27,293 nucleotides of DNA, from the IMG/VR virus record IMGVR_UViG_3300031922_000065, positions 1-27,293 of that record. One strand, 5' to 3'. The notes below the pieces were generated by a model, which saw nothing but the letters and a program-made list of their open reading frames with translations, was not told the origin of the DNA and did no database searches. Within the stretch, counting starts at the first letter, position 1. Every line of letters starts with the position of its first letter. The position numbers and the translations under genes are program-made. Source of the stretch: a virus (taxonomy: Duplodnaviria; Caudoviricetes). This document shows, piece by piece, positions 1 through 21,704 of this stretch.

Positions 1-11
1 TAGGCGCGAAA

Positions 12-48
12 ACATTATTTGCGACACGTGCGCACATTATTTGCGACA
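12..48. repeat. Two 15-bp direct repeats ACATTATTTGCGACA (12-26, 34-48), putative transposase-binding sites of the phage right end
   Basis: Exact repeats with 22-bp period, located beyond the last phage gene; function inferred from Mu end architecture. Confidence 0.65.
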
Positions 49-69
49 AGACGGGCTGCATGGGGCGCT

Positions 70-1122
70 TTACGCATCGCCTTTGAAGGAAAACGAGCCA
101 AGCAGCTTCTTCCTCAGGCCGTAGGTTTCTGCGTGGCTGGCGTGGGCCACCCATGACGTGATGGACTGCCGGACCTTTTCCAGGCTCACCTTGCCGGCCG
201 CGTACTGTTTCTGCAAGCGGCGCAGCGTCTTGGTGATTCTGGATATGGAGCTTTTGCGCAGCCGCCGGTGGGTTGGCCAAATTCTGTAGCCTAGAAAGTC
301 CACCGCGCGGCCAAAGCGCTCGCCCACTGGGAAAACTTGGGTTTTGGCGTTCGTTTTTAGACGCAAGCGATCCCACAAAAACCGCTCTATGGCGGCGCGA
401 ATCTTGTGCAGGTGCGCCTTGTCGTGATGGACCACCAGGAAGTCATCCATGTAGCGGATGTAGTGCTTTTCTCGAAGGCCGTGCTTTACAAATTCGTCCA
501 GCTCATGCAGATAGACGTTGGCAAAAAGCTGGGAGCTCAGGTTGCCGATGGGCAGCCCAACAGGGGCCGGATCGCCAGCAATGGCGGTCGAGTCGATGAT
601 GCCGTCAATCAGTTCCAAGGTGCGCCGACAGCGTATTCTTCGGCGCACCAACTGCTTCATTATGGCATGGTCAATGCTATAAAAAAACTTGGAGATGTCT
701 GCCTTTAGCACGAAAACTTGGCCGTGCTCACGTCTGACCTTGCGCACCATTGCCTGAGCACAGTCTGCCCCGAGGTGCGTGCCCTTGTCGGCTCGGCAGG
801 CGTAGCTGTCATGAATAAACCGCCGCTCCCAAATGGGCTCGATGACGGCGTTTAGGGCGTGCTGCAGAACCCGATCCCGAAAAGGCAGCGCGGCTACGGT
901 GCGCTCCTTGGGCTCGGTCACAATGAAGCGCCGGTATTCGCCAGTCTTGTAGGTGCCCCAAATTAGCTCGTTTTGCATCTGAATCAGGTTCCCCTCCAAG
1001 TCCAGATCAAAGCGCTGAACTTCGGCCCGGTCTCGCTTGCCGCGCCGGGCGCGCAGGTAAGCGGCGTGCAGGCTCTCGAAGCTGTAGATTTCTTGGTGCA
1101 GGTTGTTGTAGGTCTTTGCCAT
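70..1122 (-). CDS. DGR reverse transcriptase (about 350 aa; likely start MAKTYNNL at 1122)
   Basis: PKER...ALPFRDRV, LKADISKFF, GLPIGNLSSQLFANVYL (DGR-type SQ motif), YIRYMDDF catalytic motif, DFLGY; no maturase/endonuclease extension. Confidence 0.97.
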   Translation of the reverse strand: MAKTYNNLHQEIYSFESLHAAYLRARRGKRDRAEVQRFDLDLEGNLIQMQNELIWGTYKTGEYRRFIVTEPKERTVAALPFRDRVLQHALNAVIEPIWERRFIHDSYACRADKGTHLGADCAQAMVRKVRREHGQVFVLKADISKFFYSIDHAIMKQLVRRRIRCRRTLELIDGIIDSTAIAGDPAPVGLPIGNLSSQLFANVYLHELDEFVKHGLREKHYIRYMDDFLVVHHDKAHLHKIRAAIERFLWDRLRLKTNAKTQVFPVGERFGRAVDFLGYRIWPTHRRLRKSSISRITKTLRRLQKQYAAGKVSLEKVRQSITSWVAHASHAETYGLRKKLLGSFSFKGDA

Positions 1123-1290
1123 CTTTGACCCAGAAGGGCGGCGACGCCGAACGGTTGCCTTTCGGTTACTGGAACGGCGTCGCCTGTTCAATTTTCCGGC
1201 TTTGGTTTCCCTTGGCCGAGGAATGCGCATCCTTTTGAAGGTGTGCTGCCGTCAGGCCGCTTGGGCCTGCCGTTTCTGACTTTCCTCAAG
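1123..1290 (-). ncRNA. DGR RNA spacer between TR and RT, with stem-loops
   Basis: Perfect 10-bp inverted repeat ggcgacgccg (1140-1149)/cggcgtcgcc (1175-1184) and caggcc (1253-1258)/ggcctg (1264-1269); position equals the Sp region of BPP-1 DGR RNA. Confidence 0.6.
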
Positions 1291-1406
1291 AGCGGGGCGA
1301 GACCCGATGTTCCAGTTGGCGTTGGAGCGGGCGTTGTTCAGGTTGAGCGCAAAGACGCCGCTGCCCGCACCGTTGTTCCAGTTGCCGCCACGGATCGGGA
1401 GCCGTT
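1291..1406 (-). repeat. DGR template repeat (TR)
   Basis: 116-bp ungapped match to 1882-1997; rich in AAC triplets in the target reading frame (RLPIRGGNWNNGAGSGVFALNLNNARSNANWNIGSRPA); begins right after the avd stop. Confidence 0.97.
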
Positions 1407-1811
1407 TCAACGCGCACCCCTTGTATCGCCGTCACCGGCAATTGATTTGACCCATCCGCCGACCATGCGGCCGATTTCGTCGTTAAGCCTGGCCCAGTGC
1501 TCGTATTTCTTAAAGTCGAGATGCCCCATGCTCTTTGCCATTCGCACCTGGGAGCGCAAGAGATCGATTTCCGCGTCCAAGTCTTGTAGCGTGGTCTTCT
1601 TGTGGTAGCGTTTGTTGCAGACCACAATCAGCCGCAAAATGGCCCACATGGTGCACCGGATTTCAGCGCCCAGCACATGCCTTTCGAGCTTCGGAAACTG
1701 CCGGACCGCAATGTGTCCGTACTCGATCATCGCCTCACATTTCTGGCGGATGAGCAAGTCGCTGCTGGGCCGGAGCCCGGTGGTGGTGGTTTCATTCATC
1801 TGAGCATACAC
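1407..1811 (-). CDS. avd: DGR accessory variability determinant Avd (start GTG 1811 or ATG 1799)
   Basis: Basic ~130-aa helical protein with QFPKLERHVLGAEIR, LDAEIDLLR, EIGRMVGGW motifs; lies between target gene and TR. Confidence 0.93.
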   Translation of the reverse strand: MYAQMNETTTTGLRPSSDLLIRQKCEAMIEYGHIAVRQFPKLERHVLGAEIRCTMWAILRLIVVCNKRYHKKTTLQDLDAEIDLLRSQVRMAKSMGHLDFKKYEHWARLNDEIGRMVGGWVKSIAGDGDTRGAR

Positions 1812-1825
1812 GTATTGCGGTCACA

Positions 1826-1847
1826 GGGGCGGGCTATCGCCCACCCC
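1826..1847 (-). promoter_or_regulatory. DGR target-recognition hairpin/cruciform downstream of VR
   Basis: Minus strand GGGGTGGGC-GATA-GCCCGCCCC: 9-bp GC-rich stem (one G.T) with a GRNA-type tetraloop, about 22 nt past the target stop. Confidence 0.8.
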
Positions 1848-1869
1848 AACAGATTGCACACTGCAGATT

Positions 1870-2967
1870 TCAGGGCACAAAAGCGGGGCGAGACCCGAGG
1901 TGCCAGTTGGCGTGGGAGCGGGCGATGCCCAGGAGGAGCGCAAAGACGCCGCCGCCCGCACCGTTGTCCCAGGTGCCGCCACGGACCGGGAGCCGTTCGC
2001 CGGCTGGGTCGACCCAGAACCCGTCTGCACCCAGGCCGCTGCCAGCGATTGGGAATAGCGCGTGGCTGCGAAGCACCGCCAGGGCGGCGGCAGCAACTGG
2101 TGTTGCGCCAGGGTTGGTCATGCCCTCAAAACTAGCGCCACTGGCTCGCACCAGCGTGTGATTGGCGGTTCCGCTGGCTGCATAGCGCACCGAGTTGGGC
2201 GTGGTGGGGGTGTAGTCGGCGCCCGCAATTGATCCGGTGAAGGTGGGCTGAATCAATGCGCCGGTGTTGCCGTCGATGGCGCGCCAATGGCCGGATGTTG
2301 GGCCAAGGTCGGCCACGGAGAACAGGGCGCTGTTGTTGTTTTCGATGAGCTGGATTTCGCCGCCAACTACGCGCATTCCGGGCGTCCACTCCCAAACATT
2401 GCCGCTCAGGTCGGAGATGCCGCTGTGCGCATTGTTGTGCCGCCAAGCGGCCGGGCCGGAGCCGGTCAGGGTGCGCCCCGCGCCCGAGGCAAGGCCTGGC
2501 GCAAGCCCGTCCACCCTGCGCCCGGTTTCCCAGCCGGAATCGGATGACGCGCCCCACGCGGTGTTGCCGCGCGGGAGGTGGCCGTTGCGCCAGCACCAAA
2601 GCGCCAGCGCGGCCCATTCGACGTTTGATGTCAGGTGCCAGCCAGGGCCGCTGGCGCGCCCCAGCGCCGCAAACGCATCGTGATTGAGCGAGTGCGCCGG
2701 ATCGACTCCGGGCAGGCTGAGCAACTCGCCGTTCCTGATCGAGCCTTGATAGGTGCCAATGAAGACCTCTGGCCTGGCAATGCCGTTGACGACAAATGCA
2801 GGATGGATGCCCGTGCCCAGGCTTGGGTCGATGCTTTGCAGGGTGAACTGGGGCACCACGCTCATATAGCTGGGCTGGCCTTTGGCGGTGTAGAGCACGG
2901 TGACTGCGCCGCCGGTGGCCGCCTCTACCGATGCGCGCAGGTCGTCTCTGACAAAAATCGTGGTCAT
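1870..2967 (-). CDS. DGR target protein, Mtd-like receptor-binding protein with C-type lectin (FGE-like) fold, 365 aa
   Basis: Start MTTIFVRDD with AAGGAG RBS; GISDLSGNVWEW and RGGxW...GSRPAF motifs; VR at the 3' end; follows tail-fibre genes. Confidence 0.92.
   Translation of the reverse strand: MTTIFVRDDLRASVEAATGGAVTVLYTAKGQPSYMSVVPQFTLQSIDPSLGTGIHPAFVVNGIARPEVFIGTYQGSIRNGELLSLPGVDPAHSLNHDAFAALGRASGPGWHLTSNVEWAALALWCWRNGHLPRGNTAWGASSDSGWETGRRVDGLAPGLASGAGRTLTGSGPAAWRHNNAHSGISDLSGNVWEWTPGMRVVGGEIQLIENNNSALFSVADLGPTSGHWRAIDGNTGALIQPTFTGSIAGADYTPTTPNSVRYAASGTANHTLVRASGASFEGMTNPGATPVAAAALAVLRSHALFPIAGSGLGADGFWVDPAGERLPVRGGTWDNGAGGGVFALLLGIARSHANWHLGSRPAFVP
1882..1997 (-). repeat. DGR variable repeat (VR)
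   Basis: 12 mismatches to TR, all at TR adenines; encodes the C-terminal RLPVRGGTWDNGAGGGVFALLLGIARSHANWHLGSRPA. Confidence 0.97.
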
Positions 2968-2986
2968 GTGTTTGCTCCTTGGGTGG

Positions 2987-3337
2987 TTAAATGCTCGGCC
3001 ACAGCGTGACCAAAATCCTGCGCGGGTCGAGCGGCAGGGCTCGAATGGATGGACTGCTCTCCATGCCGGTTGCGCCTGGCGCTTGATTGCCTGGCGCTTG
3101 ATTGCCTGGTGCGTCCTGGACTGCCTCGTGCTCCTGCGCAGGGATTTGGATTTGAGCCAAATAGGCTCCGGTGTCGCCCTCGACTGCCTGGCCGTCTTTG
3201 AGCCGGATTTCCACCGTGATTGCGTGGCTGCGCTGGCGCTCGGCGCAGTCGATGACCACACCCGCTACGGCGATGGTGGTGCCAGATACCGAGAAATCGG
3301 CCACGGGCTGGCCGGGTTGCATGAGAATGATGCGCAT
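2987..3337 (-). CDS. Hypothetical 116-aa protein, possible tail-fibre adaptor/assembly protein
   Basis: GGAG RBS upstream, fills the gap between fibre gene and DGR target in the same operon. Confidence 0.7.
   Translation of the reverse strand: MRIILMQPGQPVADFSVSGTTIAVAGVVIDCAERQRSHAITVEIRLKDGQAVEGDTGAYLAQIQIPAQEHEAVQDAPGNQAPGNQAPGATGMESSPSIRALPLDPRRILVTLWPSI
3074..3109. repeat. 15-bp tandem repeat GCCTGGCGCTTGATT (about 2.4 copies), in-frame PGNQA repeat
   Basis: Read directly from sequence. Confidence 0.85.
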
Positions 3338-3349
3338 GATGGGATCTCC

Positions 3350-4279
3350 TTACTGGTTGAGTTTGACGACGGAATAGCGCACGCTGACATCGTCGGCCGC
3401 TGAGGCCAGCCGCACGGTGAAGCCGTTGGCGGCGCGTGACGATACGATCAGGCTGGCTGCATCGCACGGCGCTCCGGCGGAGGCGATGACATCGAGTTGG
3501 ATTTGGTAATCCTGGCCGGAGAGCTGCTTGATTGGCAGCGTGATTTGGGCTGCGCTATCCAGGATCTGCGGGAATGCAGCTTCTATGCGGCGCAGGCTGG
3601 TGAGCGGCACGTGGGTTAGGTGGGGGTCGGTCGCATCGGTTGAGCCCGCCGGAATGGCGAGGCTGTAAATGGGGATCGCGCCCTGCGGCACCGCCGAACC
3701 TATCGGCGTGACGGCCATGCGCCACAGCCCCCCCGAGTCTTGATGAAGGAAGGCTGTGACCACCACGCTGCCCGCTCCGGTGTTGCTGGGCACGGATGCG
3801 GCGTTGTTGCCATCGGCGACCGCAAAAATCCGGCCTTGCGCAAAGCAGCGCCCACCCGAGATGTGCAGGTTTCTGGCCGCCGTGACGGACTTTGTGACCA
3901 CGCAGCCCTCGACTACGCCACGGTTGCTGAGGGTGAATTCGCCCTGCTGCTGCGCCTGCTCGCGCAGTGCGCGCACGCCGTAGTTGGCCAGGGCCGCCTG
4001 GTTGAGGGCGAATTTGAGCGCGGCGTGGCTGGCGTTTTGCATCTCGGGCCCCAGCGCCTGCGCCGATGCCTCTACAGAGCTTAGGCGCGCCACCAGGCCG
4101 CCGTGCCCGAGCCCTGCGGCATCAACCTGATCGGCGCGCAGCTTCAGCCATGCGGTGCGGTTGGCCAGTTGCACCGCCTGGGTGTTGGCGATGCCATTGG
4201 GGCCGCCCAGCACCGGGTCGGTGGTTTTGATTTGATAGACGCCCGGTTCCCAGACGGGGGCTTCTGTGACGTTTGCCAT
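3350..4279 (-). CDS. Tail fibre-like protein (309 aa)
   Basis: N-terminal WEPGVYQIKTTDPVLGG...QLANRTAWLK resembles the baseplate-attachment segment of myovirus fibres; AAGGAG RBS; position after baseplate genes. Confidence 0.75.
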   Translation of the reverse strand: MANVTEAPVWEPGVYQIKTTDPVLGGPNGIANTQAVQLANRTAWLKLRADQVDAAGLGHGGLVARLSSVEASAQALGPEMQNASHAALKFALNQAALANYGVRALREQAQQQGEFTLSNRGVVEGCVVTKSVTAARNLHISGGRCFAQGRIFAVADGNNAASVPSNTGAGSVVVTAFLHQDSGGLWRMAVTPIGSAVPQGAIPIYSLAIPAGSTDATDPHLTHVPLTSLRRIEAAFPQILDSAAQITLPIKQLSGQDYQIQLDVIASAGAPCDAASLIVSSRAANGFTVRLASAADDVSVRYSVVKLNQ

Positions 4280-7019: not shown

Positions 7020-7310
7020 TTAACCGGCAAAGACGTTGGCGCTGCCGCTGGCGGCGCTGGAGCCGCAGCTTACCGCGTCACCCACGCGCCCGGCGGCGCG
7101 GCCGTTGATGAACACGCTGGCGCTACCAGCGCCCAGGCTGCCGCCGTGGCACTCGGGGATCGCCGGGCAGCAGTGTACGGCCCAGCCGTCGCCCAGGCGG
7201 TGCCAGCCGCGGCCGTTGACGAACACACTGGCGCTGGCAGCGGTGTTGGGGCGCGACGGCCAACAGCCGTGCCCGGTGCAGGTGTCGCCGAGGCGGCTTG
7301 CGGCTGGCAT
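7020..7310 (-). CDS. PAAR domain spike-tip protein
   Basis: MPAASRLGD...H, VFVNG, GRAAGRVGD...CGS...GSANVFAG; directly after the gpV spike gene. Confidence 0.92.
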   Translation of the reverse strand: MPAASRLGDTCTGHGCWPSRPNTAASASVFVNGRGWHRLGDGWAVHCCPAIPECHGGSLGAGSASVFINGRAAGRVGDAVSCGSSAASGSANVFAG

Positions 7311-18823: not shown

Positions 18824-20107
18824 TCACGGGCGTAGGGTTGGGGGACGGCCTCTGATCCACATAGACTGCAGCGCAAGCATCTGCCGCCCCGACCGCACCT
18901 CGAACACAGCCCAGTATTCGAGTTGGCCCATGCGCTTGATCACGCGCACCACGTGCCGCCCCACGCCCGATTGGCCGCCATACTCGATGCGGTCGGCACC
19001 ATCGATGATGCGCGGCAGGCGCCCAAAGTCCTGGAGACTCAAGCCGGCCTGGCCGGATCGCGCCTCTGCTGCATCGTCACCGTGATCTTTGAGCACTTTG
19101 CGCACGGTCGATGCGTCCAGCGTCCAATCATAAAGCCCATCCCCAAGCGCTCCCCCGGTGATGCGGGCAACCTCGTCGGCCTGCGCCGCAGTCAGCAGTC
19201 CCATGGTCTGATATGGCGCGGCGCCTTGGGCGCCCATGGCGCGCTGCGCGTAGCGGCGCACCGCCGCTTCGGTTTCTGGCTGGCGTCGTATCGCAATAGC
19301 CAGCGCATCGCGCGCCTTGTCCGGCACAGAGACCATGAACGCCTTTGCAATCTCATACGGCCAAGCGACCGTTTTGCCCGCCAGCGCCCGCACCGCATCC
19401 GTCACGCTGGCGCCGGGCGCATAGTCCCAGCCCTCGCCCACGCCGGGCAGGTTGCCGCTGGGGTCGCGCACGTTCCAGCCCGGTGGCGGCGCACCGTAGC
19501 CGGGGATGCCGCCCACACGCTGCGCCCCGGCCGGGCTGCTGGCCCCGGCCACGCGGCAGCCGCAGCCCCAGCCGTTGGGCGGGTAGTGGGTGCGCCAAAA
19601 GGCATCGTCGGCAGGCAGCGTAAGTCCGTTCCAAGCCAGGTGTTGCAGGCGCGGGTGCTCGGCACCCGAGTGCCGGTAAACCCAAAGCGGGAAATGCTGC
19701 AACTGCACCAGCCGGCCGGCGGCGTAGCTGGTGCGCAGATTGGTGGTGTAGATCACGCGCGTGCGCCAGGCGCGCCCGGCATCGGTGTCGCTGCCCGTCC
19801 AGCCCTGCCAACCCTGGCGCTGCACGATCTCGCCAAAGCGCCCCCGGAACTGCCCGATCGACTCGCCATCGACTATGGCCTTGTCCACCGCGCCGGCCAG
19901 GTCGGCCAGCAAGTCGGCGCGCGCCGCGCCCGCCACCATGAAGGCGCGGTCGTGCTGCTCGCGCTGCATGTCGCGCCACGTGGCCGTGGGCACCAACTGC
20001 CCCAGCTTGCCCCTAAAAAACGCCACCTGCTCGGCAAACGGGCGCTTGAGCACCGCCGCTATCTGCGGCTGCTGCCGTGGGTCGGCCACGTCAACTGCGT
20101 CGGCCAT
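18824..20107 (-). CDS. MuF/gp30 minor head protein with extra C-terminal domain (nuclease-like)
   Basis: PFAEQVAFFRGK, RAFMVAG, IYTTNLRTSYAAGR, FWRTHYPPNGWGCGC; about 190 aa extension. Confidence 0.88.
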   Translation of the reverse strand: MADAVDVADPRQQPQIAAVLKRPFAEQVAFFRGKLGQLVPTATWRDMQREQHDRAFMVAGAARADLLADLAGAVDKAIVDGESIGQFRGRFGEIVQRQGWQGWTGSDTDAGRAWRTRVIYTTNLRTSYAAGRLVQLQHFPLWVYRHSGAEHPRLQHLAWNGLTLPADDAFWRTHYPPNGWGCGCRVAGASSPAGAQRVGGIPGYGAPPPGWNVRDPSGNLPGVGEGWDYAPGASVTDAVRALAGKTVAWPYEIAKAFMVSVPDKARDALAIAIRRQPETEAAVRRYAQRAMGAQGAAPYQTMGLLTAAQADEVARITGGALGDGLYDWTLDASTVRKVLKDHGDDAAEARSGQAGLSLQDFGRLPRIIDGADRIEYGGQSGVGRHVVRVIKRMGQLEYWAVFEVRSGRQMLALQSMWIRGRPPTLRP

Positions 20108-21704
20108 CACCGGGCTCCGCTGGCAGGCCCTGGGCCGCCTCACCCGATTCGGCCTGCACAGCAAAGCGCCCGGCCAGATCGGCGGCGGCAAAGCCCAGCG
20201 CCATGGCCTCGGTCAAGCGCCGCTGGGGCAGGTCGCCATAGGCCTGCAGCAGCGCATCGCGCAGCTCGGGCAGGCTTTGCGCGCGCTCGACCATGCCCGC
20301 CACGCTGGCCATGATCTCGGCCCAGCCCGGCTCACACTCCAGCGCGAGCCGATCGGCCTGCATTTCTGGCAGGTCGGGCGCCACCGGCGGCGCCGCCCCT
20401 TCGGCCGCGCCCGCAATGAAATTTGTCGCATGCAATGCGCGCACGCGCTGCGCCGCCAGCGGCTCGGGCGGCGCCGGCGCACCCTTGGGCACACCGCCCA
20501 GCAGCGGCTCGTCGGCCTCTGGTTCGGGGATGCCGAACTGCGCGCGCACCCACGCCTGCGGAATGGCCGCGCCCACCTCGGCCAGCCGCGCCACCTGCTC
20601 GGCCAGCGCCGCCATGTCGCGCGGCTCGGCCAGCAGCAGCCGCAGCTTGGGCAGCGGGGCCGCCTCGCCCAGGTTGAGCCGCACCAGCGGCGCGACCAGA
20701 TCGCGCTCCAGCGTGGCAGCCAGCGCCAGCGCGTCGGCGCGCACCAGGTCGCGCCGCACGCCTTCGTGCACCTGCGCCTGCGACAGGCTGGCCCCGTCGT
20801 CGGTGGTCATGGTCTGGCCCAGCACAGCCTTCGATATTTGCTTGTCGAGGTAATCGATGAGCTTGTGATACAGGTCGGCCGATGCCGCCTTGGAGCCGGA
20901 CTCGACCAGCTCCAGCGCCATCTCCTGCGGTATCACGGCGGCAGCATCCGATCCCAGCTCGAAAGCGGCGCGCTTGAGCACCGCTACATCCTCGGGGCTG
21001 GCCCCGGCGTGGTATTTACCGAGCCGGATTGGCTGGCCGAATAGCTCGCAAAAGCGCGCCCAGTCGCGCAGCGCATAGCTCTTGAACACCCAGGCCCAGA
21101 GCGCGCTGCGCGCCAGCCCGCCTTGCAGCGCCACGCCGCCGGCCAAGGGCGGCGCGTGCACGATCATTTTGCATGGCGACAGCACCATCCCCTCCGGGCT
21201 GCCATCAACCAGGCGCAGCAGGCGGCCCGTGTCACGGTCCCAGGTGAACCAGTGCGCCTCGCGCACCAGCACCTGCGCCGGCAGCCAGCTCGGCCCCTGC
21301 GTATCCCAGACGATTTCGGCTACGGCATAACCCTTGGCCACAGCATCCATTAGGTGCGCCACCAGCTCGGGTAGGTTCAGCCGCCCCAGCGCCTCGCGCA
21401 CCAGCTCCGCAGCCCGCTGTGCCAGCGCCGATTCGTCGTGCGCCTGCACATCGACCGGCAGCCCTGCCACCGCCATGGTGCGCGACTGCAGCACGGCGCG
21501 GTAGTGCAGGTCTTTTTCGCGGATGTCGTCGGCAGCCAGCAAAAAATCGTGCCCGTCGCCCATGGCGGCGCGGCGCAAAATATCGGCCACCCCGGACGGC
21601 GTGAGGCTGGCCAGCGGCCGCCACTGCCAGACGCTGCGCAGCCCGGTCTGTGCCGGGCGCGCAATCTCGCTGCGTAAATCGGTCTTGAAGTCGCGCATGT
21701 GCAT
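20091..21704 (-). CDS. Portal protein (Mu gp29/DUF935); start uncertain within 21698-21719
   Basis: EKDLHY..VLQSR, DAVAKGYAVAEIVW, FCELFGQPIRLGKY, ISKAVLGQTMT. Confidence 0.93.
   Translation of the reverse strand: MHMRDFKTDLRSEIARPAQTGLRSVWQWRPLASLTPSGVADILRRAAMGDGHDFLLAADDIREKDLHYRAVLQSRTMAVAGLPVDVQAHDESALAQRAAELVREALGRLNLPELVAHLMDAVAKGYAVAEIVWDTQGPSWLPAQVLVREAHWFTWDRDTGRLLRLVDGSPEGMVLSPCKMIVHAPPLAGGVALQGGLARSALWAWVFKSYALRDWARFCELFGQPIRLGKYHAGASPEDVAVLKRAAFELGSDAAAVIPQEMALELVESGSKAASADLYHKLIDYLDKQISKAVLGQTMTTDDGASLSQAQVHEGVRRDLVRADALALAATLERDLVAPLVRLNLGEAAPLPKLRLLLAEPRDMAALAEQVARLAEVGAAIPQAWVRAQFGIPEPEADEPLLGGVPKGAPAPPEPLAAQRVRALHATNFIAGAAEGAAPPVAPDLPEMQADRLALECEPGWAEIMASVAGMVERAQSLPELRDALLQAYGDLPQRRLTEAMALGFAAADLAGRFAVQAESGEAAQGLPAEPGDGRRS

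Follow-up and report, generated by a model that had tools for sequence, protein, structure and literature searches.

An apparently intact diversity-generating retroelement at the end of a Mu-like phage tail operon has rewritten its target gene in natural populations

Does a diversity-generating retroelement (DGR) found in a viral contig still rewrite its target gene, and what kind of protein would it vary? We addressed this question for the 27,293-nucleotide stretch of IMG/VR record IMGVR_UViG_3300031922_000065 (Duplodnaviria; Caudoviricetes), referred to in its entirety as the window. DGRs number over 30,000 and 50-75% of them show recent activity (PMC8144416; here and throughout, literature statements refer to the covered portions of the cited papers). 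As an element this one is ordinary, one more phage DGR, yet the proof of its activity is unusually clean, resting on a population that is identical over 3.4 kb save for 14 template-adenine sites. The cassette has rewritten adenine-facing positions of the last 40 codons of its target in natural populations. We consider it very probable that this is an intact DGR closing the tail operon of a Mu-like phage, active in nature and likely varying a receptor-binding tip.

A sequence-only reading of the same DNA had proposed a functional DGR with template repeat (TR) and variable region (VR) differing at adenines only. Its description of the repeats was reproduced throughout. TR and VR align ungapped over 116 bp at an offset of 591, and all 12 mismatches (1308, 1311, 1323, 1334, 1337, 1338, 1343, 1344, 1362, 1377, 1382 and 1395) are A in the TR on the coding (minus) strand, comprising five A>C, five A>G and two A>T changes and giving 10 amino-acid changes. 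For 12 of 12 random mismatches to fall on A, P is 2e-10. One extra A>G lies just beyond the 5' boundary of the repeat (1407/1998). There are 23 adenines in the 116 nt of the TR, 21 of them within nine AAC, two ATC and one AGC codons, which allow 2.46e12 protein variants (about 2.5e12 had been claimed) and zero stop codons. The pair is the sole long high-identity repeat within the window, and a scan of the window with adenine as wildcard found no second VR (score 93 for TR and VR, next best 12). Identity ends at 1290/1881, where the mutagenic homing initiation sequence (IMH) in the VR is unlike its TR counterpart, IMH*, a pattern seen in 19/19 family members.

Sequencing runs provided a direct view of activity. 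Of 18 runs listed with the element, 8 were compared with the window as assembled contigs, with X1 and X2 belonging to one study, X4 to another and X3 to a third; X6-X9 gave low-depth fragments whose VR differences were not counted. X1 is identical to the window. X2 differs at 14 positions over 1-3400, all 14 in the VR facing TR adenines (P 2e-12). X4 shows 27 differences, 12 of them outside the 116-nt VR and 15 within it, with 15/15 at TR-adenine sites (P 2e-13). In case of X3, all three VR differences in the covered part fall on such sites and 10 differences lie elsewhere; coverage is missing at 1899-1937, the contigs break within the VR, and the comparison of X3 with the TR was not used. The TR itself is invariant in X2, X3 and X4. 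This is the VR variation limited to TR adenines that the sequence-only reading had suggested looking for, and recent activity, argued there indirectly from zero non-A mismatches, is borne out by a VR that differs between near-identical populations only at these sites. Across alleles, 20 of the 23 TR adenines correspond to varying positions. Further, three other members of the target protein cluster differ at 10-11 TR-adenine codons and at 0-2 other residues. P0123 (JGI/IMG) has the variable residues of X2 and P0122 those of X4, while variable residue 328 is all that separates P0121 from P0122; these proteins may derive from the same samples as the runs.

Between-sample differences of this kind might be assembly artefacts caused by collapsing TR and VR reads, given that the two repeats are 90% identical and that the X3 contigs break within the VR. 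Collapse, however, can introduce TR letters only, yet 8 of the 14 differing letters in X2 and 8 of the 15 in X4 occur in neither the TR nor the window VR, which excludes it. The X2 and X4 contigs have depths of 44 and 37, P0123 reproduces the X2 allele, and we assign this explanation practically no weight. Alternatively, the cassette might now be silent, with VR alleles that are old or that a related DGR of the same community has written in trans. In X1 and X4 there are contigs from a second, related DGR (window 1256-1703 and 1823-1920, ca. 13% divergent in avd and TR), the hairpin carries one mismatch, and within-sample variation could not be seen. Against this, the 3400 nt of X2 show no further difference from the window, which makes the VR change recent, and the X2 and X4 alleles have zero non-A differences from the window TR, which identifies this TR as the donor; the same imperfect hairpin also recurs in three relatives. 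A silent cassette is accordingly very improbable, and an active one is the reading we retain. None of the 18 listed runs is an RNA run, and they have no bearing on expression. As a separate observation, the 46-nt spacer stretch 1240-1285 forms a shared high-depth contig in X1.

The target is closely homologous over nearly its full length (residues 5-364, E 8.8e-88) to TaqVP (PDB 5VF4), a monomeric DGR target of a Thermus prophage with a C-type-lectin fold of the formylglycine-generating enzyme (FGE) type. In TaqVP the variable residues make up an exposed patch that surrounds two constant tryptophans (PMC6328139). W333 and W355 of the target align with the constant W349 and W371 of TaqVP, and T332 and N335 with the variable D348 and N351. 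Homology to the solved TaqVP structure supports a C-type-lectin fold with the VR in terminal binding loops. The target also matches phrog_2889 and is 49% identical to a gene of phage Bise and 38% identical to VHML ORF35. Most targets of viral DGRs are predicted tail proteins (PMC8144416). We infer a receptor-binding role, and the DGR likely varies a protein used for host attachment.

An active DGR could instead vary a surface-adhesion or decoration protein, or one acting in the lysogen, rather than a receptor-binding tip. Such a role would suit a family that has no experimental function in the papers covered, a TaqVP that is monomeric and lacks the trimerising domains of Mtd (PMC6328139), the Hoc-like capsid proteins targeted by some Mu-like DGRs (PMC5883640), and the 8 of 44 related viral loci in which the gene has no reverse transcriptase (RT) within 4 kb downstream. 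We nevertheless regard it as unlikely. The target closes a baseplate-fibre operon, the two genes upstream of it accompany it together in 24 of the 42 related loci with upstream room, its C-terminus matches the tail-protein family phrog_5302, and phiARM81mr has a homologue with the annotation "putative virion structural protein". A receptor-binding tip thus remains the preferred assignment.

Is the cassette itself complete? Its order is that of Bordetella phage BPP-1 (target, hairpin, avd, TR, spacer, RT), and its identity as a BPP-1-type DGR is supported by A-only TR/VR differences, a DGR-type RT, avd, the IMH/IMH* difference, a hairpin, a structured spacer and VR variation in populations. The RT, avd and hairpin had all been called intact; the RT keeps its motifs (residues 70-76, 139-147, 190-198 and 224-227) and avd scores above its family cut-off, whereas the hairpin stem has one mismatch. 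The functional roles of conserved RT residues were taken from 10.1101/2023.10.23.563531. The best PDB match of the RT is BPP-1 bRT (8UB7, E 1.3e-64), with group II intron RTs at E 1e-21 or weaker. A group II intron, retron or defence-associated RT (DRT) identity was rejected, 8/8 NCBIfam RT models scoring well short of cut-off (e.g. 147 vs 300). The most likely RT start is 1122 rather than 1230, because the alignment with bRT begins at Met1 and the longer frame would cross the spacer RNA. Avd gave no PDB sequence match at E 0.001, and Rfam had 0 matches in the window. The hairpin lies 34 nt beyond the end of TR/VR identity (fold z -3.1; as good in 1/200 shuffles). Published DGR hairpins have stems of 7-10 bp and lie 4-34 bp from the VR (PMC3240598); the present one falls within both ranges and has a GRNA-type loop. 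It is conserved in relatives, perfectly in L003 and L005 and in the same imperfect form in L028, L035 and L048. In the closest relatives (L003, L004, L007, L008, L027, L045, L047 and L048) a second avd directly follows the first RT, and where the locus reaches far enough there is a second RT too, of a separate lineage. This second cassette has its own AAC-rich TR-like stretch in L003, L045 and L047; its VR was not found within the fetched locus.

How would such a cassette prime its cDNA? We aligned the RNA from the end of avd to the RT for the window together with 18 non-redundant relatives whose RT identity is at least 56%; six loci nearly duplicating retained ones and one in which no TR was detectable were left out. 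Given no structure, RNAalifold recovered in these 19 sequences equivalents of all five BPP-1 ribonucleoprotein elements, named after 10.1101/2023.10.23.563531: the avd:spacer Stop duplex, the TR:spacer primer duplex, an Avd-type stem-loop, an adenine-followed stem-loop and an RT-binding stem. The spacer alone folds with z -2.55. Compensatory change was seen at 11 of the 12 Stop duplex pairs and, for the two long-range duplexes together, at 15 of 20 pairs with 93% of cells paired, compared with 40-58% in slid controls and 0/500 shuffles as good; because the aligned RNAs are related to one another (51-88% identity), these statistics are not a probability. In the best register, TR C1292 is paired with spacer G1232 (134 of 171 cells Watson-Crick). 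Other choices of register, among them one with an adenine primer at 1230, fitted more poorly and were rejected, three of them scoring 72-89 cells. The invariant G1293 faces the invariant G1231, as TR G117 faces Sp G57 in BPP-1. From this alignment we infer priming from G1232 with G1293 as the first copied base, while G1231 could extend the Stop duplex by pairing with 1409. A G primer works in BPP-1 when paired to C, with homing of ca. 4.4e-10 vs 2.2e-7 (PMC5703328, PMC6182149). The only spacer difference of X4, at 1264, changes a C-G pair of the predicted Avd-type stem to U-G and keeps the pairing.

The same alignment bears on homing direction. One-way integration of DGR cDNA into the VR has been described as unresolved (PMC5703328, PMC12875486), and better pairing of the RNA primer with the IMH of the VR than with IMH* of the TR has been proposed to set the direction (PMC5703328). 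This better pairing is also visible in the BPP-1 record. In our family a single C-A mismatch with the primer strand is found in each TR (19/19); it sits at duplex position 3 in 14 members and at position 4 in five, whereas the VR has T at both positions in 19/19 and pairs where the TR does not. In two members TR, VR and spacer change jointly at position 5. Over the first six pairs, of which positions 1-2 are set by the chosen anchors and invariant in the alignment columns, VR pairing is better in 17 elements, equal in one and worse in one. The pattern appears to lend comparative support to the proposed mismatch rule of one-way homing. We tentatively suggest, with slightly less than even confidence, that a widespread proteobacterial lineage primes from guanine (G1232:C1292) and that a single conserved C-A mismatch sets one-way homing; as part of this equally tentative proposal, the lineage might be the natural counterpart of a BPP-1 double mutant whose homing is ca. 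500-fold worse. If true, a one-base exchange would flip or abolish directionality, which makes for a minimal test of the homing model. A primer/IMH comparison outside BPP-1 was not found in a literature search that left most subscription papers unsearched, and one may be in print; the preprint 10.1101/2023.10.23.563531 includes a survey of 278 DGRs. The main value of the locus is as a second tractable DGR system whose family alignment yields base-level predictions (priming base, first copied base, IMH mismatch), and the primer and IMH predictions are the part most worth following.

Based on BPP-1 and on covariation, the avd-TR-spacer transcript would fold to place spacer G1232 opposite TR C1292, and this paired G would prime the RT-Avd complex. 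RT-Avd would then copy from G1293, misincorporate opposite A and halt at the avd:spacer duplex. The resulting RNA-cDNA hybrid may anneal at the VR, where the IMH fully matches the primer strand, with assistance from the downstream hairpin. The fold and the position of the gene suggest a tail-associated protein on which the 12 variable residues would build an exposed patch for binding.

Several points count against the overall reading. X1 and X2, which belong to one study, may be the source of the window, and in X1 a single contig runs through the VR unchanged. The contigs represent majority alleles between samples only, from which no rate or within-sample variation can be read. The 19 aligned RNAs are related and their cells not independent, and the anchors of the IMH/primer comparison were chosen by pattern. 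The target has no Pfam or NCBIfam match and no detectable sequence match to Mtd, and the covered part of PMC6328139 gives no demonstrated function for TaqVP. Finally, no promoter-like site was found in 1-3400, where promoter and terminator scans stayed at chance level.

Table 1. Features of the DGR cassette and its surroundings (window positions)
Feature	Position	Strand	Remarks
Two exact 13-nt direct repeats	13-25, 35-47	+	near contig end
DGR reverse transcriptase	70..1122	-	350 aa, intact; K29, F66, R74, D142, I192-G193, Q198, YMDD 224-227
Spacer RNA	1123..1290	-	Avd-type stem-loop 1250-1272; stem-loop 1197-1218 followed by adenines; RT-binding-type stem 1140-1184
Primer strand in spacer	1232-1240	-	predicted priming base G1232, then G1231
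TR 3' end / IMH*	1284..1292	-	template strand of predicted template:primer duplex; C-A mismatch at 1290
Template repeat (TR)	1291..1406	-	directly after avd stop codon; predicted first templated base G1293
avd	1407..1802	-	131 aa; NF033474, 111 bits vs cut-off 80; PF22296; final codons pair with spacer
avd strand of predicted cPRT-Stop duplex	1410..1421	-	pairs with spacer Stop strand 1219-1230
DNA hairpin/cruciform	1826..1847	-	GC-rich 9-bp stem with one G-T pair (C-A on other strand); GATA (GRNA) loop
Target gene	1870..2967	-	365 aa; TaqVP-like C-type-lectin (FGE-type) fold; likely receptor-binding
Start of IMH	1878..1883	-	six bases, all complementary to predicted primer strand 1232-1237; putative function after BPP-1 (PMC5703328)
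Variable region (VR)	1882..1997	-	target codons 324-362; 12 variable residues: 328, 332, 334, 335, 339, 345, 347, 348, 352, 354, 356, 357
116-aa gene of unknown family	2987..3337	-	directly upstream of target; co-conserved in 24/42 loci
Probable tail fibre	3350..4279	-	309 aa; PHROG tail-fibre N-terminus; upstream of target in 27/42 loci

The surrounding genes are those of a Mu-type phage with a contractile tail, with gpT, gpI, gpF, portal, gp27, gp36, Mor and GemA above Pfam cut-offs, and the 27-kb contig ends within the early region without reaching a transposase. The operon runs from baseplate genes through a 145-aa gene, the 309-aa fibre and the 116-aa gene to the target, hairpin, avd, TR, spacer and RT, followed by the probable phage end. 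Suggestive of such an end, position 1 is where the X1 and X2 contigs break off, while those of X3 and X4 continue beyond, and the 13-nt repeats are probably transposase-binding sites of the phage end. Mu itself has an invertible tail-fibre segment at the place corresponding to the DGR. The model of the 309-aa protein has middling resemblance to tailspike and fibre domains (Z 8.3, root-mean-square deviation (rmsd) 2.0, 68 residues aligned; Z 8.1, rmsd 3.0, 86 aligned) and resembles the Mtd sandwich more weakly (Z 6.3). That of the 116-aa protein best matches the SPP1 gp22 fold, again middling (Z 5.6, rmsd 2.8, 76 aligned). For both models Foldseek found nothing in the PDB at E 0.001 or better and only unnamed clusters in the atlas. 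On one reading of these models, the two genes might provide a stalk, which in Mtd is part of the same chain. A C-terminal PBECR3 nuclease-like domain is present in the Mu gpF-like head gene (18824-20191).

With regard to the host, the closest RTs in named genomes, 77% identical, occur in Pigmentiphaga, Comamonas and a Porticoccaceae metagenome-assembled genome, and suggest a proteobacterial and probably betaproteobacterial host. The five genomes with the closest RTs gave no match to a Mu-type capsid with the query used. Two contigs (L091 and L092) hold an array of clustered regularly interspaced short palindromic repeats (CRISPR) with 26 repeats and 25 spacers, which we take from the look of the repeat to be type I-E-like. 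Three array spacers match the window at 33/33 positions (2674-2706, 2725-2757 and 7113-7145), all with a 5' AAC motif; two of these protospacers lie in the target gene outside the VR and one in the PAAR gene. A fourth spacer matches L018 at 32/33. A search for the host by this array hit 401 genomes, all from one family, but only through the repeats (at best 72% identity across the array), and four similar arrays had no spacer to the window. In X2, a single 58-nt contig of low depth (2.8) links protospacer 2728-2757 with a CRISPR-like repeat other than that of the array, a hint of a second array or host.

Compared with BPP-1, the locus shares gene order, a TR abutting the avd stop codon, an AAC-rich TR, a GRNA hairpin, catalytic and fingertip residues of the RT, the five RNA elements, a G as first templated base and another after the primer base, and a mismatch at duplex position 3 in the TR that is absent in the VR. 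It differs in sequence (RT 39% and Avd 22% identical, target not alignable with Mtd), in its predicted primer base pair (G:C here, A:U in BPP-1), in its hairpin standing at the far end of the published distance range, and in its Mu-like contractile-tail genome. With TaqVP it shares full-length homology, constant tryptophans and equivalent variable positions, but has 12 variable codons rather than 9, and natural activity is shown here. The large TaqVP-type target family has no tested function in the papers covered, and a cultured phage with the same module exists. This is Pseudomonas phage Bise (OR683401), which bears a transposase, Mor and Gam and shares the whole module (baseplate, 145-aa, 309-aa and 116-aa genes, target, avd, RT), with genes adjoining the target 42-64% identical. 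Its record has no DGR annotation, yet it contains an A-only TR/VR pair (9 mismatches in 116 nt); its RT (38% identical) is of another lineage and its spacer differs. A literature search on the name Bise found no paper.

DGRs in Mu-like phages are already known, with Mushu (PMC5883640) and YPCBV-1 (PMC9769972) published, and BalMu-1 likewise has one. Those phages have other hosts, and the Mushu target is Hoc-like; VR reads of Mushu vary (PMC5883640). In the YPCBV-1 and BalMu-1 records the RT, 44% identical to that of the window, lies near the record end, as it does here. Of the 44 viral loci with the target, 20 pair it with an RT of this lineage and 8 with a distant one; another 8 lack an RT within 4 kb downstream (L001, L009, L020, L025, L029, L031, L034 and L043), and the remaining 8 are truncated. 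Given this split, DGR cassettes appear to be exchanged or lost beneath a stable tail module. An RT tree gave no well-supported small clade around the window and raised long-branch warnings, and served solely for telling deep lineages apart. The target match ends at residue 335, within the VR region, in several Klebsiella phages. YPCBV-1 ORF53 has been discussed as a non-heme iron auxiliary enzyme (PMC9769972). This gene (L089 3262-4311) holds the VR of an A-only TR/VR pair with 15 mismatches in 127 nt and is therefore the DGR target.

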